Position numbers and translations under genes: made by a program
In this document: positions 5,409 to 57,191 of the stretch, in pieces
Layout of the letters: every line of letters begins with the position of its first letter
Position numbering within the stretch: position 1 is the first letter of the stretch
The notes under the pieces: generated by a model
Told to the model about the DNA's origin: nothing
The model's database searches: none
What the model saw: only the letters and a program-made list of their open reading frames with translations
From: Escherichia coli
GTDB taxonomy: Bacteria; Pseudomonadota; Gammaproteobacteria; Enterobacterales; Enterobacteriaceae
Length of the DNA: 64,000 nt
Assembly (NCBI RefSeq): GCF_044324785.1
Contig: NZ_CP172128.1
Strand: one strand, 5' to 3'

Positions 5409-6050
5409 ATGTTCATCAGAGCTTATTTAAGGGCATCGACAGAAGATCAGTTCGCCGATCGGGCAAAAGAGATGCTGGAGCAGTTCGTTCAGGAGCGGGG
5501 GCATAAAATCGCCAGCTACTACCGGGAGAACATCAGCGGCACAAAACTAGACCGCCCGGAACTGGGACGCTTACTGATGGACAGTCATCGCAATGATATC
5601 TTGCTGGTCGAGCAGATAGACCGCCTGACCCGTCTTAGCAACAGTGACTGGATAACGCTGAAAAAGCAGATAGAACAACACGAGTTGCGGATTGTCAGTC
5701 TTGATGTGCCCACATCATGGCAGGCTCTGTCAGATAAAGATCCTTCGCAAGCGGACCCGATCACCCGCACAGTAATAACCGCAATAAATAATATGCTTAT
5801 CGACCTGATGGCTGCAATGTCGCATAAAGACTGGCTGAGTCGTCGTCAACGACAAAAACAGGGAATTGAACGTGCCCATACTTTAGGTAAGTATCGGGGC
5901 AAACAGGCAGATCGGGAACGACATCAGAAAGTAATGTACTACCGGCAGATCAAGAAACTGAGCATCCGTGAAACGGCAGAGGTGACAGGCTATAGTACTT
6001 CCCAAGTTTGTCGCATTCAGGCGCTCTATAAAGAGGTTAAACCTGATTAA
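5409..6050 (+). CDS. serine recombinase (resolvase/invertase family)
   Basis: 213 aa; N-terminal catalytic motif YLRASTEDQ with Ser10; C-terminal HTH region; divergent from tnpA fragment. Confidence 0.7.
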   Translation: MFIRAYLRASTEDQFADRAKEMLEQFVQERGHKIASYYRENISGTKLDRPELGRLLMDSHRNDILLVEQIDRLTRLSNSDWITLKKQIEQHELRIVSLDVPTSWQALSDKDPSQADPITRTVITAINNMLIDLMAAMSHKDWLSRRQRQKQGIERAHTLGKYRGKQADRERHQKVMYYRQIKKLSIRETAEVTGYSTSQVCRIQALYKEVKPD

Positions 6051-7585: not shown

Positions 7586-7869
7586 CAGCGTGGCACCGGT
7601 AACGGATTGTCAGTACTGAGGCTGTCCGCCCAGGCCTGTACAGCCTGATGGTCGATAACCTGTCCGGATTTCACATCGTCCAGGGCTTCCAGCGTCAGGC
7701 GATTACGCTCCTCCTCCTGGGCAAGCCATGCAGAAAGCGCCTGTTTGATAACCCAGCCCCGGGAGCGTTCCAGTCTGGCGGCCATCTGGTCGACTTTATC
7801 AGCCATTGGTAATGGCACATGCGCGGTAATGACTTTTGTTGCCTGTGCGGTATTGTTTTTCATTTGCAT
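7585..7869 (-). CDS. type II antitoxin (ribbon-helix-helix, ParD/CopG-like)
   Basis: 94 aa, directly upstream of and overlapping the toxin gene. Confidence 0.6.
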   Translation of the reverse strand: MQMKNNTAQATKVITAHVPLPMADKVDQMAARLERSRGWVIKQALSAWLAQEEERNRLTLEALDDVKSGQVIDHQAVQAWADSLSTDNPLPVPR

Positions 7870-10791: not shown

Positions 10792-11790
10792 ATGAAGAAG
10801 GTCCTTTGCGCGTTAGGCTTGATGTTCACCGCCGTCAGTTCCGCGCTGGCAACAACCTACCCCCTGACGATTGAAAACTGCGGCTATCAGGAGACCTTCA
10901 CCCGGCCGCCGGAGCGCGTGGTCGCGCTGGGGCAAAATACGGTCGAAATTCTGCTGCTGCTCGGGCTGCAAAAGCAGGTGGTCGCCAGCGCCTTCTGGCC
11001 GACCAGCGTTTTACCGCAGCTGGCTGAGCAAAACGCGAAGATTAAAACCTTGACGGTGGAAATTCCGAGCCTGGAATCGGTGCTGGCGCAAAATCCTGAT
11101 TTCGTTCCCGCCCAGTTGCCGCTGCTGCTGGGGCCGGAAAGCAAAGTCGCCAGGCGTGAAGATCTCGCCACCGTCGGCGTGAACAGCTACGTCTCACCGG
11201 GGGTGTGCGCCACCAAAAAGGCCACCGGCGATATGTACGGCAGCCGGCAAAAGCTGTGGGATATGACCTGGCTGTATCAGGAAATTAGCGATTTTTCCCG
11301 CATTTTCAACGTCGAAGATCGTGGTCAGGCGCTGATTGCCGATTTCAAAAAACGTGAAGCCGACCTGCGCCAGGAGTTTGGTAAAAGCAAAAAGGATCTC
11401 TCCTTCGTCTTCTGGTTCTCCAGCGCCTCACCTTCGGCCGATGCCTATGTCGGCGGCAAAAACAGCGCCTCCGGATTTATCGCCAGCGTGCTGGGCGGAC
11501 ATAATGCGATTACCTCCGAAACCGAGTGGCCCACGGTGAGCTGGGAGAGCATTATTGCCGCCAACCCGGATGTGATCGTGGTCGCCAGCCTGGATCGTAA
11601 CCGCTGGGCGCTGGATAAAGCCGAGGAGAAGATCAAATTCCTCAAAAGCGATCCCGCCGTCAGCCAGCTGGAGGCGGTGAAAAAAGGCCATATCGTGGTC
11701 ATGGACGGTCAGGCGATGAATCCGACCATTCGCACGCTTTACGGAGCGGAGCAGGTGGGCGAGCAGCTGAGAAAAATGGGGCTGAACTGA
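10792..11790 (+). CDS. ABC transporter periplasmic substrate-binding protein (iron/siderophore type)
   Basis: 332 aa with signal peptide; followed by FecCD-type permease and ATPase genes. Confidence 0.7.
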   Translation: MKKVLCALGLMFTAVSSALATTYPLTIENCGYQETFTRPPERVVALGQNTVEILLLLGLQKQVVASAFWPTSVLPQLAEQNAKIKTLTVEIPSLESVLAQNPDFVPAQLPLLLGPESKVARREDLATVGVNSYVSPGVCATKKATGDMYGSRQKLWDMTWLYQEISDFSRIFNVEDRGQALIADFKKREADLRQEFGKSKKDLSFVFWFSSASPSADAYVGGKNSASGFIASVLGGHNAITSETEWPTVSWESIIAANPDVIVVASLDRNRWALDKAEEKIKFLKSDPAVSQLEAVKKGHIVVMDGQAMNPTIRTLYGAEQVGEQLRKMGLN

Positions 11791-45873: not shown

Positions 45874-47145
45874 TCAGAATGAAGCAATGGGGATCTCAGT
45901 CCATTGTGTTGTATACGAAGGCGAGAGCATTTCCCGTTTCATTTGCCATTCAGGGGCGGTTCCTCGCCCCGCAAACCACACTTTCCCTTTTCCCGACTGG
46001 TTCAGTTCATCGAGTGTTTTCATTAACTTTTCACTGTTTTTACGGGGCTGGATTTCATCAAATAATCCCGGCTGCGCTATACCCGATGGTGTGAAATCAG
46101 CCAGCATGACTCCTGCCTTCATATAGCGGTACCCTTCACGCCAGACATGGTTTAAGGCTCTGCATGCGGCGGCAATAATGTCCCGGCTGTCCTGTGTGGG
46201 CAATGGAAGCTTTTCCACAGCGGCATTGCTGTAACAGGGTTCTTTTACTGCAAAGGGGGATGTCCGTACAAATGTCGTCACCTGCCGGCAATACTGACGC
46301 TCCCCACGTAGTTTCTCTGCGGCCCGCTCTGCATACTGAACAACAGCCTGGTGCATGGCATCTTTGTCTGTGATTCGTTCACCAAAACTGCGACTACAGA
46401 CAATCTGCTGTTTTGCCGGTGGTGCTTCTTCCAGGGATATGCAGGACTCGCCGTTGAGTTCGCGTACCGTACGCTCAAGAATGACGCTGAAGTTTTTCCG
46501 GATGAATGCCGTGTTAGCCTGCGCCAGCTGCAGTGCTGTGTTAATACCCAGCGCATTCAGCTTTTCCGTCAGTCTGCGTCCTACTCCCCAGACCTCACCA
46601 ACTGGCTGCAGTCCCAGTAGCTTCAAGATCCGATTACGGTTTTCTGCCGTCAGCGCGACCACACCGGAAAACTGTGGCCATTGCTTTGTTGCCCACTGTG
46701 CACTTTTAGCCAGCGTTTTTGTAGGCGCAATGCCCACCCCCATGGTGAGTCCTGTCCAGCTCTTTACCTGTTCCCTGAGCTGATGACCAAAAAACTCCGG
46801 AGAGATGCAATGATTTATCCCCCGCAAATCAATAAACATTTCATCAATTGAGTAGGGCTCAACTGCGGGAGAAAGCGACTCCAGAACAGCCATGACCCGT
46901 TGGCTCATGCTGTGGTACAGCGCATAATTGCTGGAAAATACATGTATTTTCTTCTCCAGGCGCATCTGTCTCACCTGAAACCAGGGCTGCCCCATTCTGA
47001 TGCCAAGGGCTTTTGCCTCCGGGCTGCGCGCGATCACACAGCCATCGTTATTGCTGAGTACGATGACCGGTTCGTTGCGAAGGTCCGGGCGGAAAACTTT
47101 TTCACATGAGGCGTAGAAACTGTTGATATCAGCCAGTGCAAACAT
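45874..47145 (-). CDS. impB: translesion DNA polymerase V catalytic subunit (UmuC/ImpB family)
   Basis: 423 aa Y-family polymerase (MFALADINSFYASCE..., SIDEMF). Confidence 0.85.
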   Translation of the reverse strand: MFALADINSFYASCEKVFRPDLRNEPVIVLSNNDGCVIARSPEAKALGIRMGQPWFQVRQMRLEKKIHVFSSNYALYHSMSQRVMAVLESLSPAVEPYSIDEMFIDLRGINHCISPEFFGHQLREQVKSWTGLTMGVGIAPTKTLAKSAQWATKQWPQFSGVVALTAENRNRILKLLGLQPVGEVWGVGRRLTEKLNALGINTALQLAQANTAFIRKNFSVILERTVRELNGESCISLEEAPPAKQQIVCSRSFGERITDKDAMHQAVVQYAERAAEKLRGERQYCRQVTTFVRTSPFAVKEPCYSNAAVEKLPLPTQDSRDIIAAACRALNHVWREGYRYMKAGVMLADFTPSGIAQPGLFDEIQPRKNSEKLMKTLDELNQSGKGKVWFAGRGTAPEWQMKREMLSPSYTTQWTEIPIASF

Positions 47146-47582
47146 CAGCGTAACTCCCGCGTCCTGTGTATCACGTGAGTGACAACACCAAAAATACAGA
47201 TGTTTTCCGGATACAGTGTGCGGAACTCCGGGCTGTCTGAAACCGGCTCCAGTGCCGGGCGTGGGCGCAACAGCAGTCGTTTGACGGTGAACTCACCGTC
47301 GATCTCAGCGATAACGATGTCCCCGTGTTGTGGTTTTTCGGCCCTGTCCACTACCAGCAGATCACCATTCTGCACGCCAGCCTGGTTCATCGATTCACCG
47401 CTGGCGCGCAGAAAGAAGGTGGCTGCAGGTCTGCTGATGCAATAGCTGTTCAGATCCAGTTCCTGCTCAGCATAATCAGTGGCAGGCGAAGGAAAACCGG
47501 CCTGGCAACGATCGGCAAACAACGGTCGCACGTAACTGTCATCGCCTGAAGGGTCAGCCGGACGGTGATAAACGGTACTCAT
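47145..47582 (-). CDS. impA: UmuD/ImpA-like self-cleaving SOS protein
   Basis: 145 aa, S24 peptidase (LexA-like) domain with Ser/Lys dyad region (ASGESM ... FTVKRL). Confidence 0.8.
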   Translation of the reverse strand: MSTVYHRPADPSGDDSYVRPLFADRCQAGFPSPATDYAEQELDLNSYCISRPAATFFLRASGESMNQAGVQNGDLLVVDRAEKPQHGDIVIAEIDGEFTVKRLLLRPRPALEPVSDSPEFRTLYPENICIFGVVTHVIHRTRELR

Positions 47583-47826
47583 GCTGCAGGCAGCCAGCTG
47601 TCGTCCTGCCAGATTTCTTCCAGCAGAGACAGGATACGTTCTTTATCCTTGTCGTTGCGGGCTCCTGTGACAGATACAGACGGGGCGCTGCCCTGGTCTA
47701 TACGCAGCCAGATTTCCGGGTAGTGTGGTTTCAGACGTTGTTCGATTTCATTCTGTAGCGCCTGAAGTGTGCCTGATTTGAGGTTTTTGTGCTCTGGCGG
47801 TCGAAAAGAATTTCAATGCGGATCAT
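47579..47826 (-). pseudogene. impC: impC-like small ORF with apparent frameshift
   Basis: ATG at 47826 encodes MIRIEILFDRQSTK then stops; a second frame continues to a stop overlapping impA start; frames join at an A/T5 homopolymer near 47783-47787. Confidence 0.45.
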
Positions 47827-47848
47827 GTTCTCATCTCCCTTTTCTATT

Positions 47849-47866
47849 GCTGTATGTATATACAGT
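47849..47866. promoter_or_regulatory. LexA (SOS) box upstream of impCAB
   Basis: GCTGTATGTATATACAGTA, perfect CTGT-N8-ACAG. Confidence 0.75.
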
Positions 47867-48219
47867 ATTCTAATAACTGAATCCACACACAGTCAAATGT
47901 CATTATTGTGACTAAAAAACGCTCAATTCTCTGAGGGTGTGGCTGTATGCCTGCTGTGGAGTGCTGTGTCCAGCTTATCCACAGCATTTTGTGCACGGTT
48001 CTGTGGACAAAATACCTGGTTACCCAGGCCGTGCCGGCACGTTAACCGGGCTGCATCCGATGCAAGTATGTCGCTGTCGCCGGCCTCCTCACCCGGTCAC
48101 GTTTCGTCGTTCCTCCTCCACGCGCTGCGGCTTCGGGGCCGCACCTGCATTCGTATGCGGTCGCCCGGTAACAGGTGCGGCACGGCCTGATGGAGGCCGC
48201 ATGTGAGAGGAGAATTCCC

Positions 48220-49146
48220 ATGCCAAACTGGTGCTCGAATCGTATGTATTTTTCTGGTGAACCGGCACAGATCGCTGAGATTAAACGACTGGCCAGTGGT
48301 GCAGTCACACCGCTTTATCGCCGCGCCACAAATGAAGGTATTCAGCTGTTTCTGGCCGGAAGTGCCGGACTTCTGCAGACCACTGAAGATGTGCGGTTTG
48401 AACCATGCCCCGGACTGACGGCTGCCGGACGTGGTGTTGTATCTCCGGAGAATATAGCGTTCACCCGCTGGCTGACACACCTGCAGAACGGTGTACTGCT
48501 GGATGAGCAAAACTGCCTGATGCTGCATGAACTCTGGCTGCAGAGCGGTACTGGACAGCGTCGCTGGGAAGGATTACCGGACGATGTCAGGGATACCATC
48601 ACCGCACTTTTCACCGCAAAAAGAGGTGACTGGTGTGGCTTCTGGAGTAACGAGGATGTATCGGTGTGGTGGAACCGTCTGTGTGACAATGTACTGCCGG
48701 AAAAAACCATGCCGTTTGACCTGCTGACGGTTCTGCCGACCCGCCTTGATGTTGAAGTGAATGGCTTCAACGGTGGTGTTCTGAACGGTGTTCCTTCTGC
48801 ATATCACTGGTATACAGAACTGTATGGTGTGAAGTGGCCTTGTGGGTATGACCTGAATATCAGCAGTCAGGGGGAAAACTTCATTCAGGTGGATTTCGAC
48901 ACGCCGTGGTGTCAGCCGGAAAGCGACGTTATTGCAGCATTAAGCCGCCGTTTCAGCTGCACGCTGGAGCACTGGTATGCCGAACAGGGCTGTGATTTCT
49001 GTGGCTGGCAGTTGTATGAGCGCGGAGAGCTTGTTGATGTGCTGTGGGGGGAACTGGAATGGTCTTCCCCGACAGATGACGATGAGCTGCCGGAAGTCAC
49101 CGGACCTGCGTGGATAGTCGACAATGTGGCGCATTATGGCGGATGA
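48220..49146 (+). CDS. hypothetical leading-region protein (Cys/Trp-rich, ~308 aa)
   Basis: long ORF with GAGGAG RBS before ATG at 48220; not recognised. Confidence 0.5.
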   Translation: MPNWCSNRMYFSGEPAQIAEIKRLASGAVTPLYRRATNEGIQLFLAGSAGLLQTTEDVRFEPCPGLTAAGRGVVSPENIAFTRWLTHLQNGVLLDEQNCLMLHELWLQSGTGQRRWEGLPDDVRDTITALFTAKRGDWCGFWSNEDVSVWWNRLCDNVLPEKTMPFDLLTVLPTRLDVEVNGFNGGVLNGVPSAYHWYTELYGVKWPCGYDLNISSQGENFIQVDFDTPWCQPESDVIAALSRRFSCTLEHWYAEQGCDFCGWQLYERGELVDVLWGELEWSSPTDDDELPEVTGPAWIVDNVAHYGG

Positions 49147-49194
49147 AGTATGACGGAGACGGGCGGGAAACCGCCCGTTTCTTTTCCGACAAAG

Positions 49195-49551
49195 GATGTC
49201 GCCGGCGGCTCCGCTTTACCCGGCCATGCGGGGCATGGCCTTGTGGGTTTTCAACTCTGTAGCCTCAGCGTCGTGTGCGGGCTGTGCCGTGCCTCCATCG
49301 TAGCCGGGCTTCTGCGGGCGGGTTGCAAGGTAAGGTGAACCGCTGCGGTCACCCGGTCCCTCCTTCCCGTCTGCCGTGATTTTCCGGTCGTTCACCCGCT
49401 CAGATTTCGCGGTCTCACCCTCCAACTCCCGTCAGCCGTGTGCGTCAGGCTGCGGCTTCCCTTGCGCCCTTGCAACCCTGCAGGCCCGGCAAAGATGGAG
49501 GCACGGCACCGCCCGGTGTCGCGGAATATGTGAACAACGGAGGAAAACATC
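49195..49551 (+). repeat. GC-rich structured leading-region repeat, type B copy 1 (Frpo/ssi-like)
   Basis: ~360 bp nearly identical to 56148-56507; ends at klcA start. Confidence 0.6.
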
Positions 49552-49977
49552 ATGCAATATGCGAAACCTGTCACTCTGAATGTTGAAGAGTGCGACCGTC
49601 TCTCCTTTCTGCCTTACCTGTTTGGCAACGATTTTCTGTATGCCGAGGCGTATGTGTACGCGCTGGCGCAAAAAATGATGCCGGAATATCAGGGAGGCTT
49701 CTGGCACTTCATCCGCCTGCCGGACGGTGGCGGTTACATGATGCCGGATGGCGACCGTTTCCACATGGTGAACGGTGCAAACTGGTTTGACCGTACCGTG
49801 AGTGCTGATGCCTGCGGCATCATTCTGACTTCCCTTGTGATTAACCGCCAGTTGTGGCTGTACCACGACAGCGGGGATGCGGGACTGACACACCTTTACC
49901 GGATGCGCGATGCGCAGTTGTGGAGCCACATCGAATTTCACCCCGAATGCAATGCGATTTACGCGGCACTGGACTGA
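49552..49977 (+). CDS. klcA: KlcA/ArdB-family antirestriction protein
   Basis: 141 aa, size and sequence character of KlcA/ArdB. Confidence 0.65.
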
Positions 49978-50023
49978 TTAACGGACGGGGCGGCGATGCC
50001 GCCCCTGTAAAGGAGACGAGAAC

Positions 50024-50443
50024 ATGTACTGTACTGTTAAAGAAATTATCCGCGAAGTGCTGGATACAGACGTGCCGGACAGTGAATGCGTTTTTGCTGT
50101 GGTGCTGACCCGTGGGGATGTACGTCACATAGCCCGGGACTGGAACCTGACAGACGATGAGCTGGAAACCGTCATGCAGCGGCTGGACGATGCCTTTGAG
50201 CATGGTGCTGATGTCAGCATTGTTCACGACGTTGTTCGTGAACTGATGGAGGAAAAGCGCGTAAACCGTCTTGTAACAGTCCCTGCGGTGCTGCTGGAAA
50301 AAGTGATGGTGATGGCTGGTAGTGAAATTTATCGCCTCCATGCTGTAGGGAGCGAGAACGGGGGCGACGGTGACGCATTTGTCAGGGAAGAACGTGAGAT
50401 TATGCGGTTGATGCGTCAGGCGCTGGACGGGGAGAACGGGTAA
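50024..50443 (+). CDS. hypothetical leading-region protein
   Basis: 139-aa ORF, acidic; not recognised. Confidence 0.45.
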   Translation: MYCTVKEIIREVLDTDVPDSECVFAVVLTRGDVRHIARDWNLTDDELETVMQRLDDAFEHGADVSIVHDVVRELMEEKRVNRLVTVPAVLLEKVMVMAGSEIYRLHAVGSENGGDGDAFVREEREIMRLMRQALDGENG

Positions 50444-50634
50444 TGAATATCAGCACAGAAACCCGCGAAATTCTGCGCAATTACAAAGCCGTGATTAATG
50501 CACGACGTCGTGAGATGGGGCAGAAACCGCTCACCACCGCGCAGATTGTTGATGAAATCTGCGATTTTGTGGCAAATCAGCAGGCTGTTTTCCTCGGCGG
50601 TCACTACATCCTTCAGGGCAGCAGAAACAGGTGA
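50443..50634 (+). CDS. hypothetical small protein
   Basis: 63-aa ORF with start overlapping upstream stop. Confidence 0.35.
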   Translation: MNISTETREILRNYKAVINARRREMGQKPLTTAQIVDEICDFVANQQAVFLGGHYILQGSRNR

Positions 50635-50835
50635 TACAGGGCAGGCGGTGGAGGCCGCCTGTCAGCCCGCGCGAAAACCCCTGGCAGGCTGACGCCTGCC
50701 GGAAATGCGGGGTGCAGCGCCTGCGGCGCTGCCGGCCCGGCTTTCCGGTCAGAAGATAGTGTATGGCTGTATGCCAGGAACAGGTGCGATATTCCGTGAC
50801 ACTGTCACTGTTTCTGGCTGTCTTTTATTGCGCCC

Positions 50836-51403
50836 ACTTCGGCTCCCGGCTGCCTGGCGGCATCCGGTCGTCAGGCCCGACTACGACAGGCAGCTGCTTG
50901 CGCACCCGCCAGTCTCCGCCGAACCCGCTGGCGCGGTTTCGGGCTGTCGCTACGGTCCGATGCGTGAAAAACCGGGCTTGCAGCGACCGTTCCGGTCGCG
51001 CCGCCTCTGTCGCGCCGTGACCTGCGCTCCCTGCACACCTGACGGTGTGTGAGGAAACTGCGCCTGATGGCGCAGCAGTCTTCCCTCCTGCCGCCACCTC
51101 TGCGGCCTGTTTCCCGCTGTGGACTTTCCGGGGGGCAGACGTAACCCCCTCCCGTTCCATCTGTCCAGGGTGAGATGCACCGGCCACAAAATTTTTAGCC
51201 ATGAACCCGGCTAAAAATTTTGCGTCCGCCCCCGGACAGCTGTCCCGTGAGGCGGTAAACGGGCCCCCATCGGAAAGGTCCACTGCGGGGAGAAACCCCT
51301 GTGAAGTGGACGGCAGGAGGAGCTTTCGCTCCTCTGAAGGGGCACATGAACGTCCCGTCGCCGGTATCCGGTTTATCTCACATCTTTCAGTCAGGAGGTT
51401 CTT
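50836..51403 (+). repeat. GC-rich structured leading-region repeat, type A copy 1 (Frpo/ssi-like)
   Basis: homologous to 57192-57739 and 60527-60897; ends at ssb start. Confidence 0.6.
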
Positions 51404-51931
51404 ATGAGTGCACGTGGTATCAACAAGGTCATCCTCGTCGGGCGTCTGGGCAATGATCCGGAAGTCCGTTACATCCCCAACGGGGGCGCAGTGGCAAACC
51501 TGCAGGTGGCCACGTCAGAAAGCTGGCGCGACAAACAGACGGGGGAGATGCGGGAGCAGACGGAATGGCACCGCGTGGTGCTGTTCGGCAAGCTCGCGGA
51601 AGTGGCAGGTGAATATCTGCGCAAGGGCGCGCAGGTCTACATCGAGGGGCAACTCCGTACCCGTAGCTGGGAAGATAACGGTATCACCCGTTACGTCACT
51701 GAAATTCTTGTTAAGACCACGGGCACCATGCAGATGCTGGGGAGTGCACCACAGCAGAACGCTCAGGCGCAACCGAAGCCTCAGCAGAATGGGCAGCCAC
51801 AGAGTGCTGACGCGACGAAAAAAGGTGGCGCGAAAACGAAAGGCCGTGGACGTAAGGCCGCGCAGCCCGAGTCTCAGCCGCAACCGCCGGAGGGGGAGGA
51901 TTACGGGTTTTCAGACGATATCCCGTTCTGA
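51404..51931 (+). CDS. ssb: plasmid single-stranded DNA-binding protein
   Basis: OB-fold N-terminus [23 protein letters not shown].., Gly/Gln-rich linker, acidic tail DDIPF. Confidence 0.9.
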
Positions 51932-51949
51932 CTGGCCTGACTGTGATAA

Positions 51950-52222
<273 letters not shown>

Positions 52223-52285: not shown

Positions 52286-54244
52286 ATGTCAGTTACAGAG
52301 TCTAAGACAAAAACGGAGCGTAAATCCAGCCGTAAACCTGCAAAAACGCAGGAAACTGCACTGTCTGCCCTGCTGGCGCAGACGGAGGAAGTGAGCGTGC
52401 CGCTGGATTCACTGATTAAATCACCGCTGAATGTGCGCACGGTGCCGTATTCTGCGGAGTCCGTCAGTGAACTGGCTGATTCCATTAAGGGAGTCGGCCT
52501 GCTGCAGAATCTGGTTGTTCATGCCCTGCCAGGTGACCGTTACGGTGTCGCCGCAGGTGGTCGCCGACTGGCAGCACTCAACATGCTGGCAGAGCGTGAC
52601 ATCATTCAGGCTGACTGGCCTGTCCGCGTGAAAATTATTCCGCAGGAGCTGGCGACGGCTGCATCGATGACCGAGAACGGTCATCGTCGGGATATGCACC
52701 CTGCCGAACAGATTGCCGGATTCCGCGCAATGGCGCAGGAAGGCAAAACACCTGCGCAAATCGGTGATTTGCTGGGCTATTCACCCCGCCATGTCCAGCG
52801 AATGCTGAAACTGGCTGACCTTGCGCCTGTCATCCTCGATGCGCTGGCAGAAGACCGCATCACCACCGAACACTGTCAGGCGCTGGCGCTGGAGAACGAC
52901 ACCGCGCGTCAGGTGCAGGTGTTTGAAGCCGCCTGCCAGTCAGGATGGGGTGGAAAACCGGATGTGCGGGTTATCCGCAACCTGATTACGGAAAGTGAAG
53001 TGGCGGTGAAGGACAACACTAAATTTCGCTTTGTGGGGGCTGATGCTTTCTCGCCTGACGAACTGCGCACCGATTTGTTCAGCGATGACGGGGACGGTTA
53101 TGTCGACCGCGTGGCGCTCGATGCCGCCCTGCTGGAAAAACTCCAGGTTGTTGCAGAGTCCCTTCGGGAAGCAGAAGGCTGGGAATGGTGCGCCGGGCGC
53201 ATGGAGCCAGTCGGTGAGTGCCGTGAGGATGCCGGAACATACCGCTGTCTGCCGGAGCCGGAAGCGGTGCTGACGGAGGCGGAAGAAGAACGCCTGAACG
53301 AACTGATGACGCGTTACGACGCGCTGGAAAACCAGTGTGAGGAATCCGACCTGCTGGAAGCAGAAATGAAGCTGATGCGCTGCATGGCGAAGGTCAGAGC
53401 GTGGACGCCGGAGATACGTGCCGGAAGCGGTGTGGTGGTGTCCTGGCGTTATGGCAACGTATGTGTCCAGCGTGGTGTGCAGTTGCGCAGTGAAGATGAC
53501 GCGACTGACGACGCTGACCGCACGGAACAGGTGCAGGAGAAAGCGTCAGTGGAGGAAATCAGTCTGCCACTGCTGACGAAAATGTCTTCCGAACGCACGC
53601 TGGCAGTCCAGGCGGCACTGATGCAGCAACCGGACAAATCCCTGACACTGCTGGCATGGACGCTCTGCCTGAATGTGTTTGGCAGCGGAGCGTACAGTAA
53701 ACCAGCACAAATCAGCCTGGAATGTAAACATTATTCGCTGACCAGCGATGCGCCGTCAGGGAAGGAAGGTGCCGCATTCATGGCGCTGATGGCAGAAAAA
53801 GCCCGTCTTGCGGCCCTGTTACCGGAGGGATGGTCACGGGACATGACGACATTCCTTTCACTCAGTCAGGAGGTGCTGTTATCCCTGCTCAGTTTCTGCA
53901 CCGCGTGCAGCATCCACGGCGTTCAGACCCGCGAGTGTGGTCACACGTCACGCAGCCCGCTGGACACGCTGGAGAGCGCCATCGGTTTTCACATGCGCGA
54001 CTGGTGGCAGCCGACAAAAGCAAACTTCTTCGGACACCTGAAAAAGCCGCAGATTATCGCAGCCCTGAATGAGGCAGGACTGTCCGGTGCCGCACGGGAC
54101 GCGGAGAAGATGAAGAAAGGCGATGCGGCTGAACATGCAGAGTTCCATATGAAAGACAACCGCTGGGTGCCTGGCTGGATGTGTGCACCACGTCCACAGA
54201 CGGATACCACTGAACGCACTGATAACCTGGCTGATGCCGCCTGA
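52286..54244 (+). CDS. ParB-like nuclease domain protein
   Basis: 652 aa; N-terminal ParB/Srx-like segment (..LLQNLVVHALPGDRYGVAAGGRRLAAL..). Confidence 0.7.
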   Translation: MSVTESKTKTERKSSRKPAKTQETALSALLAQTEEVSVPLDSLIKSPLNVRTVPYSAESVSELADSIKGVGLLQNLVVHALPGDRYGVAAGGRRLAALNMLAERDIIQADWPVRVKIIPQELATAASMTENGHRRDMHPAEQIAGFRAMAQEGKTPAQIGDLLGYSPRHVQRMLKLADLAPVILDALAEDRITTEHCQALALENDTARQVQVFEAACQSGWGGKPDVRVIRNLITESEVAVKDNTKFRFVGADAFSPDELRTDLFSDDGDGYVDRVALDAALLEKLQVVAESLREAEGWEWCAGRMEPVGECREDAGTYRCLPEPEAVLTEAEEERLNELMTRYDALENQCEESDLLEAEMKLMRCMAKVRAWTPEIRAGSGVVVSWRYGNVCVQRGVQLRSEDDATDDADRTEQVQEKASVEEISLPLLTKMSSERTLAVQAALMQQPDKSLTLLAWTLCLNVFGSGAYSKPAQISLECKHYSLTSDAPSGKEGAAFMALMAEKARLAALLPEGWSRDMTTFLSLSQEVLLSLLSFCTACSIHGVQTRECGHTSRSPLDTLESAIGFHMRDWWQPTKANFFGHLKKPQIIAALNEAGLSGAARDAEKMKKGDAAEHAEFHMKDNRWVPGWMCAPRPQTDTTERTDNLADAA

Positions 54245-56042: not shown

Positions 56043-56147
56043 ACCAGTGGAGGTATGCTTGAGGGGCAGGGACATGCCGGTCATGATCGTTTCGTTCCAG
56101 GGGTGGTCTGGAGATCATGCGGTGTGCTCCCTGCTCTCGCCGGAATA

Positions 56148-56507
56148 AGGACGTCGCCGGCGGCTCCGCTTTTACCCGGCCATGCGGGGCATGGCCTTGT
56201 GGGTTTTCAGGTATGAAGCCATCGTGTCGTGTGCGGGCTGTGCCGTGCCTCCATCGTAGCCGGGCTTCTGCGGGCGGGATGCAAAGGTACGCTTCGCCGC
56301 TGCGGTCACCCGGTCCCTCCTTCCCGTCTGCCGTGATTTTCCGGTCGTTCACCCGCTCAGATTTCGCGGTCTCACCCTCCAACTCCCGTCAGCCGTGCGC
56401 GTCGGGCTGCGGCTTTCCTTGCGCCCTTGCATCCCTGCAGGCCCGGCAAGGATGGAGGCACGGCACCGCCCGGTGCCGCAGAACATGTGACTATGGAGGA
56501 TTCGGGA
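56148..56507 (+). repeat. GC-rich structured leading-region repeat, type B copy 2 (Frpo/ssi-like)
   Basis: nearly identical to 49195-49551; ends at ardA start. Confidence 0.6.
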
Positions 56508-57008
56508 ATGTCTGTTGTTGCACCTGCTGTATACGTTGGAACCTGGCACAAATACAACTGCGGAAGCATCGCCGGACGCTGGTTTGACCTGACCACGTTT
56601 GATGATGAACGCGATTTTTTCGCCGCCTGCCGTGCCCTTCACCAGGATGAAACCGATCCGGAACTGATGTTTCAGGATTATGAGGGATTCCCGGGGAATA
56701 TGGCCTCTGAATGTCATATCAACTGGGCCTGGGTTGAAGGCTTCCGCCGGGCGCGGGATGAAGGCTGCGAAGAGGCTTATCGTCTCTGGGTGGATGATAC
56801 CGGTGAGACGGATTTTGACACCTTCCGCGATGCCTGGTGGGGCGAGGCTGACAGTGAGGAGGCTTTTGCGGTTGAGTTCGCCAGTGATACCGGCCTGCTG
56901 GCTGGCGTGCCGGAGACGGTGGCGCTCTATTTTGACTATGAGGCGTATGCGCGGGATTTATTCCTGGACTCCTTCACCTTTATTGACGGTCATGTGTTCC
57001 GTCGGTGA
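56508..57008 (+). CDS. ardA: ArdA antirestriction protein (DNA mimic)
   Basis: 166 aa from MSVVAPAVYVGTWHKYNCGSIAGRWFDL.., highly acidic. Confidence 0.85.
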   Translation: MSVVAPAVYVGTWHKYNCGSIAGRWFDLTTFDDERDFFAACRALHQDETDPELMFQDYEGFPGNMASECHINWAWVEGFRRARDEGCEEAYRLWVDDTGETDFDTFRDAWWGEADSEEAFAVEFASDTGLLAGVPETVALYFDYEAYARDLFLDSFTFIDGHVFRR

Positions 57009-57191
57009 TTTACTCCCCCGCTCCGGCGGGGGTATGGCCTGCCGGGCCGCCGGAAAACCCTGGCAGGCTTACGCCTGCCTGAAATGCAGGAGGGCCGCGC
57101 CTGCGGCGCTGCCCTTCCTGCCCGTCATGGTGTGAGGCATTTTTCTGTTATGTCGTTTCTGTTGTTCTGATTTCCGGAGGCGGGGACACCC

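Follow-up and report, generated by a model that had tools for sequence, protein, structure and literature searches.

Which products does a conjugative plasmid supply to a new host together with the anti-restriction protein KlcA, and what might they do there? The question is raised by a 64,000-nucleotide (nt) stretch of Escherichia coli DNA (the window; RefSeq assembly GCF_044324785.1, contig NZ_CP172128.1), in which klcA is flanked by three plus-strand open reading frames (ORFs): 48220-49146 (308 residues), 50024-50443 (139 residues) and 50443-50634 (63 residues). All three are present as an earlier model-made reading of the sequence (the original prediction) had given them. On balance, we think it probable that they are bona fide leading-region backbone genes of an IncK2/I-complex conjugative plasmid, the first being a DUF1281/YubB-family gene that would form a transcription unit of its own, and the other two the distal cistrons of a klcA operon that lies behind a homologue of the class 2 single-stranded DNA (ssDNA) promoter of plasmid F.

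The plasmid setting and the conservation of the locus carry the first part of this answer. Positions 47600-51400 are 99.8% identical to the E. coli plasmid pLH10-b-1-A (IncK2/Z, MOBP, MPF_I) and are matched by at least 5000 enterobacterial plasmids; 82 of the best 5000 span at least 80% of this query in one piece. The plus-strand gene order, namely DUF1281, klcA, a DUF1380-like gene, the 63-residue ORF, a GC-rich hairpin region, ssb, DUF905, the ParB-like gene yfjB/herB, psiB, psiA and ardA, is that of the leading module in plasmids F, pEB1 and pESBL-EA11 (pESBL hereafter). By synteny with F, oriT would be expected beyond ardA; the minus strand would therefore be the one transferred and would serve all the leading genes as template. 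Searches with each of the three ORFs matched at least 5000 plasmid records, and exact copies of the proteins were counted on contigs at least 1000 times for the 63-residue, 209 times for the 139-residue and 104 times for the 308-residue product. A Shine-Dalgarno-like sequence precedes each of the three starts. In comparisons with F, pEB1 and pESBL, the ratio of nonsynonymous to synonymous substitution rates (dN/dS) was 0.13-0.25 for the 308-residue gene, 0.19-0.24 for the 139-residue gene and effectively 0 for the 63-residue gene, in which 16 of 16 pairwise codon differences were silent. Judged by these substitution patterns, all three are strongly conserved real genes under purifying selection. 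That they merely accompany klcA, as relics without function or as noise of annotation, is accordingly a reading to which we attach hardly any probability: the frameshifted DUF1281 gene of F, the many truncated database entries and the non-essentiality of the genes in transposon sequencing (TnSeq) would be in keeping with it, but not dN/dS values of 0-0.25, the wholly silent divergence of the 63-residue gene, the retention of length and position by homologues at only 34-56% identity, or the confident DUF1281 model with its invariant motifs.

The second part of the answer concerns how these genes would be expressed. The 405-nt spacer upstream of klcA contains a minus-strand hairpin at 49278-49515, whose 32-nt arms (49278-49309 and 49484-49515) are 91% complementary and for which the predicted DNA fold of the transferred strand has an energy of -106 kcal/mol (z = -5.7). 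Its identity to the regions before klcA in F, pEB1 and pESBL is 89-96%, and a hidden Markov model (HMM) of class 2 promoters matches it with E = 3e-129. The original prediction had called the repeat between the 308-residue ORF and klcA Frpo-like; its sequence is unlike Frpo, with no similarity found to the Frpo region before ssb, and it is instead a homologue of the class 2 (ssp2) ssDNA promoter, which would drive the klcA operon from the transferred strand. A second, near-identical class 2 hairpin precedes ardA at 56131-56500 (nhmmer E = 6e-123), in agreement with the published pairing of klcA and ardA promoters. No Rfam family was matched in window positions 47000-52000.

Homologues of this element have been studied by experiment. 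The transcription start at the class 2 promoter was mapped in pESBL by rapid amplification of 5' cDNA ends, and early induction of the klcA operon was observed in pESBL and F transconjugants (PMC12672017). Both promoter and roadblock activity have been shown for the pESBL and F hairpins (PMC12672017; bioRxiv 10.64898/2026.01.09.698686); in F, ssp2 also acts as a UvrD-resolved roadblock to synthesis of the complementary strand, and its deletion lowers transfer into strains bearing restriction-modification systems (bioRxiv 10.64898/2026.01.09.698686). By analogy with these near-identical loci in the literature, the klcA operon of the window plasmid would be read from the single strand as it arrives, within minutes of entry, and be switched off once the complementary strand has been made.

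In the window, klcA/ardB (49552-49977, plus strand; PF03230, E = 8e-26; phrog_10132, anti-restriction protein) is the first cistron of this operon. The 139-residue gene follows after 46 nt and the 63-residue gene with an overlap of 1 nt (-1 nt gap), all co-directional, and no plus-strand terminator was found between 49978 and 50443. Because of this tight, terminator-free spacing on one strand, the two genes would, by homology to plasmids that have been studied, be distal cistrons of the klcA operon. They would thus share one operon and one promoter with KlcA/ArdB, which, like the 139-residue protein, is small and acidic; it belongs, however, to an unrelated sequence family, PF03230, which neither the 139-residue nor the 63-residue protein matched. 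Within the 63-residue ORF, a plus-strand terminator-like stem-loop followed by ATTTTGTGG occurs at 50540-50563; it could be a chance structure or an attenuator of read-through toward the Frpo region.

What, then, is the second cistron? Its product is a 139-residue, acidic, predicted all-helical protein (isoelectric point (pI) 4.58, net charge -14, 30 of 139 residues D or E, two Cys, one Trp) of the type named YubJ, YcgC, YfeC or YcjA in other plasmids and Hp12 in pESBL. The nearest known case is YubJ of F (YUBJ_ECOLI, 'uncharacterized protein YubJ' in Swiss-Prot), which is 86% identical and occupies the same place after klcA; identity to most copies carried by plasmids is 84-88%. Against the DUF1380 profile PF07128 the window protein scored 19.0 bits (E = 0.0015), short of the gathering cut-off of 26, as did F YubJ (20.4 bits), whereas the canonical DUF1380 protein of the pEB1 methylase operon reached 178 bits. 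Nevertheless, BLASTP aligned the window protein with this canonical pEB1 protein at 28% identity over 116 residues (E = 5e-10), 16 of its 20 aligned relatives match PF07128, and it shares the MY.T start and VTVPA..L core of canonical DUF1380 proteins (YubF/YcgB type), whose gene sits in the methylase operon that the window plasmid lacks. It is therefore best filed as a divergent DUF1380 paralogue, in a sister subfamily of YubJ type. The family is narrow, with 125 matches, mostly fragments, among 1.84 billion representatives, and the gene is 80-90% identical in most of the best 5000 plasmid matches; homologues at 34-35% identity still directly follow the klcA gene, with a methyltransferase (MTase)-YubE-DUF1380 set further upstream. 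Relative to F, synonymous divergence (dS) is 0.84 in the C-terminal half of the gene (50258-50443) and 0.20 in the N-terminal half, at similar dN/dS (~0.2 versus 0.11). This fourfold difference suggests a mosaic, recombinant allele rather than positive selection.

A more telling comparison comes from the Klebsiella pneumoniae IncFII plasmid pBK30683, in which the slot between klcA and the homologue of the 63-residue gene is filled by ArdA (11245-11751) instead of the 139-residue gene. This, together with the paralogue that follows the M.EcoGIX methylase, argues for an anti-restriction-like role of the 139-residue protein, and the exchange with ArdA is the best contextual hint of such a role. 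ArdA is also acidic and small and would, in the window, be made early from a class 2 ssDNA promoter (ardA copy at 56509-57009). One might go further and, as the original prediction did for the acidic small proteins of this region, see in the 139-residue protein a DNA mimic of Ocr/ArdA type that would fit into the groove with which type I restriction enzymes bind DNA. Its acidity, the adjacency of its gene to klcA in an early operon and the presence of a known mimic in its slot in pBK30683 would all suit such a mimic. However, no sequence or fold similarity to ArdA or any other known DNA mimic was detected for the 139-residue protein, and PDB sequence and profile searches with it and with the 63-residue protein returned nothing below E = 0.03. 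The mimic suggestion fares no better for its neighbours: acidity holds for the 139-residue protein but not for the 63-residue one, which is basic (pI 9.62, net charge +3), the only informative structural relative of the 308-residue protein is Api92, and fold searches revealed no resemblance to known mimics. We consider a DNA mimic improbable here.

The third cistron is the most conserved of the three. The 63-residue protein (one Cys, no Trp; WP_001027495.1, AreA by its UniRef name, and Hp13 of pESBL) is encoded from a start that overlaps the stop of the 139-residue gene (TAATG), an arrangement of translational coupling. It is identical in the window, F and pESBL and at least 95% identical in the best 5000 plasmid matches, and homologues stand in the same position in the divergent contig L006 (47% identity) and in pBK30683 (56%). 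No match to it was found in Pfam, NCBIfam, PHROG or the PDB. We think that this ultra-conserved basic protein would most likely serve as a small binding or regulatory partner, its gene closing the klcA operon irrespective of which gene stands in the middle.

Such properties bring up a different reading, in which the 139-residue protein, the 63-residue protein or both are accessory factors or regulators: a chaperone or specificity factor for KlcA (the DUF1380 paralogue serving M.EcoGIX likewise), or a tuner of leading-region or host expression. It is in keeping with DUF1380 paralogues following both anti-restriction genes (MTase-YubE-DUF1380 and KlcA-DUF1380-like), with a 63-residue protein that is basic and varies far less between plasmids than its neighbours do, and with the persistence of its gene at the operon end even when ArdA is in the middle. 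Yet pBK30683 has KlcA with no DUF1380-like partner, from which it follows that KlcA needs none, and cloned KlcA/ArdB works alone in anti-restriction assays. Moreover, contigs L004 and L005 keep KlcA and the DUF1380-like gene, but in L004 the latter is followed by no 63-residue ORF, and no DNA-binding domain was detected in the 63-residue protein. A purely accessory role thus seems to us rather unlikely.

The 308-residue protein (named YfdA, YccB or Hp8 in other plasmids) could be assigned firmly to a family. Cys- and Trp-rich, as had been noted from the sequence (10 Cys, 16 Trp; pI 4.41, net charge -23), it passed the Pfam cut-offs for both PF06924 (DUF1281; 1e-49, 168.8 bits, cut-off 27.3) and PF18406 (DUF1281_C, 'ferredoxin-like domain in Api92-like protein'; 4e-15, 55.9 bits, cut-off 22.8), and matched Api92 of Yersinia pseudotuberculosis, a structural-genomics protein that has been crystallised (PDB 2IJR), with E = 5e-51 and ~33% identity, so that it could be placed in the Api92 fold. 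It is a full-length DUF1281/YubB member and a homologue of Api92. The predicted structure was confident and would comprise an Api92-like, ferredoxin-like core with a helical insert, a fold with no relatives of assigned function: fold searches gave no informative structural relative other than Api92, and all BFVD matches were to 'YubB ferredoxin-like' proteins, uncharacterised and encoded by phages or giant viruses. As Api92 itself has no assigned function, the match supplies a name rather than a mechanism.

An alignment of 31 homologues from plasmids of Escherichia, Salmonella, Klebsiella, Kosakonia and Pantoea (46-97% identity) showed that an N-terminal MPxWCxNR motif, DFDTxW, HW..E.G..CG and a C-terminal GG are invariant in 31 of 31; the window protein has them all. 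Since MPxWCxNR is invariant and aligns with residues 3-8 of Api92, the start at 48220 is supported; RefSeq starts the gene of the closest relative at the equivalent of window position 48244, which drops eight residues and cuts the motif, and the pESBL copy is annotated in the 308-residue form. Within the DUF1281 clade of plasmids, C5, H251, C258 and C261 (window 48232 and 48970-49002) are invariant or nearly so, and these four residues could form a metal site; the GCDFCG turn that holds C258 and C261 is, in the alignment, absent from Api92.

Both flanks of the DUF1281 gene may bear on its expression. Directly after the stop, at 49159-49185 on the plus strand, lies an intrinsic-terminator-like stem-loop with a T-run (ACGGGCGG-GAAA-CCGCCCGT-TTCTTTT), the stem being present in the predicted fold; since it follows the stop, DUF1281 would be its own transcription unit. 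F and pEB1 have an analogous terminator ahead of the klcA promoter region. Upstream, the noncoding block 47937-48219 equals coding sequence in its conservation, with 95.5-97.9% identity to F, pEB1 and pESBL, and contains a hairpin at 48025-48189 (27-nt arms 48025-48051 and 48163-48189, 78% complementary) with a z of -4.7 in the minus-strand DNA fold. F keeps the block upstream of its DUF1281 pseudogene at 95.5% identity to the window. No sigma-70-like plus-strand promoter was found in the block. In local alignment the hairpin reached z = 1.8 with the class 2 copy of klcA and 5.6-6.0 with that of ardA; as a Frpo or a class 3 promoter it was rejected, with no similarity to either. We regard it as a candidate cis element that might act as a weak ssDNA promoter of the transferred strand. 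In pBK30683, a hairpin of class 3 (M.EcoGIX type) is duplicated (5721-5947 and 7639-7866) directly upstream of a DUF1281 gene 47% identical to the window copy, which indicates that DUF1281 genes do recruit ssDNA-promoter elements.

What would the three products do? Our reading of the context is that their site of action would be the new recipient, while the plasmid is becoming established there. The 139-residue protein, acidic and helical, would most likely be a stoichiometric protein inhibitor of a defence or nuclease function of the recipient, and the DUF1281 protein, encoded in a unit apart that has one hairpin ahead of it and a terminator behind it, would probably be another recipient-directed factor. 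An anti-defence or establishment role is plausible and fits the synteny with KlcA, the ArdA slot, the zygotic klcA operon and the enrichment of these families in leading regions. Also fitting a conditional role is the pESBL TnSeq result, in which Hp8, Hp12 and Hp13 were non-essential for maintenance and transfer to E. coli K-12, and so, equally, were KlcA and M.EcoGIX, the latter mattering only with restricting recipients. A bolder form of this reading would make the YubJ-type DUF1380 proteins a new anti-restriction or anti-defence family functionally interchangeable with ArdA in the klcA operon, with AreA as a conserved small partner and with DUF1281 driven by a further, hitherto unrecognised ssDNA-promoter hairpin at 48025-48189. 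We put this forward as a tentative idea of low probability; if true, it would add a seventh zygotic unit to the leading regions of IncI and IncF plasmids.

Several observations weigh against our main reading of the three genes. Neither profile nor fold searches turned up a known anti-defence protein. The AlphaFold2 model of the 139-residue protein, with six helices and a long C-terminal helical hairpin, is of moderate confidence (predicted local distance difference test score 79.8, predicted template-modelling score 0.50). The hairpin upstream of DUF1281, while the best non-self match of the class 2 promoter HMM in the window (nhmmer), was matched with an E of only 0.094 and 5 bits, in its left arm only. 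The pESBL study found six induced operons, and not all leading genes were induced (PMC12672017); DUF1281 lies upstream of the outermost of the six and may escape zygotic induction. A 1-nt frameshift breaks the DUF1281 homologue of F (yubB region, L003 2811-3781) into two ORFs; this copy is a pseudogene, so the gene is dispensable. Lastly, location in the leading region alone need not mean anti-defence. YfjB/HerB (window 52286-54244) is another leading-region protein of these plasmids that is induced zygotically and was once uncharacterised; this CTP-binding, ParB-like DNA clamp has recently been shown to act by reprogramming the transcription of the host, and not by blocking defence.

HerB leads to the last alternative, that the three proteins serve establishment outside immunity, in the manner of SSB, PsiB or HerB, through ssDNA handling, the SOS response or metabolic cost. 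Genes for SSB, PsiB/PsiA and the ParB-like YfjB/HerB, whose target is host transcription and not defence, lie in this region too, and the homologues are dispensable in K-12 matings, all of which would agree with it. The conserved linkage of the genes is, however, tight to klcA and the methylase and not to ssb or psiB, and the positional exchange with ArdA also speaks against such a role, which we consider doubtful. The general reading of the three genes as uncharacterised and possibly anti-defence agrees with how the field now sees them and is retained as plausible.

The families themselves are not new. In the survey of Samuel et al. (Nature 2024), family 27 is DUF1281 (YubB/YccB/YfdA), family 14 comprises YcjA/YcgC/YfeC/YubJ and family 6 AreA/YffA, all three being abundant, labelled 'uncharacterized', oriented with the T-strand and found enriched in leading regions. 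The window sequences are identical or nearly so to database entries, and nothing in them is new as a sequence feature. The description of the ORFs as uncharacterised was borne out: profile matches were limited to DUF1281 and DUF1281_C, a weak DUF1380 and none for the 63-residue protein, with no match to a characterised family of unrelated function; NCBIfam, PADLOC and PHROG scans gave 'unknown function' matches or nothing; and a literature search on DUF1281, DUF1380, YubJ and related gene names found no functional study (the 'areA' query being confounded by the English word). The value of the analysis lies in ranking the three genes as good candidates for experiment. They belong to families among the most abundant uncharacterised leading-region genes of IncF, IncI and IncK plasmids, which are main vehicles of extended-spectrum beta-lactamase and other resistance genes in Enterobacteriaceae, and their functions could reveal new ways in which plasmids neutralise recipient defences or prepare the host, and point to targets for blocking plasmid establishment.

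The spacer between DUF1281 and klcA bears one further mark of its history. The window plasmid has none of the M.EcoGIX methylase operon that F, pEB1 and pESBL carry here, which comprises a class 3 ssDNA promoter, the methylase gene, yubE, a canonical DUF1380 gene and a ychA/ycfA-like gene. At the junction, positions 49191-49204, is the 14-nt motif AAAGGATGTCGCCG, within which, in a three-way alignment, the homology of the window changes from 'after DUF1281' to 'before ssp2'. In pEB1 the same motif is present twice, once behind the terminator of DUF1281 and once ahead of the class 2 promoter, a pattern consistent with deletion of the methylase operon by recombination between short direct repeats.

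Finally, some features were noted at the margins of the locus. The minus-strand genes before DUF1281 are impB, impA and an impC remnant, with a LexA box (CTGTATGTATATACAG) at 47850-47865. The DinI-like impC (minus strand, 47579-47830) has a 1-nt deletion in a poly-A/T run at 47784-47788 (A5, versus A6 in pEB1), which breaks it up into an N-terminal piece of 14 codons and the 44-residue remnant that RefSeq annotates; the frameshift is common to pLH10-b-1-A, and impA and impB appear intact. A 125-residue 'hypothetical protein' annotated by RefSeq in the closest relative on the minus strand (50826-51203) falls inside the GC-rich Frpo hairpin region and, given its location, is probably spurious.

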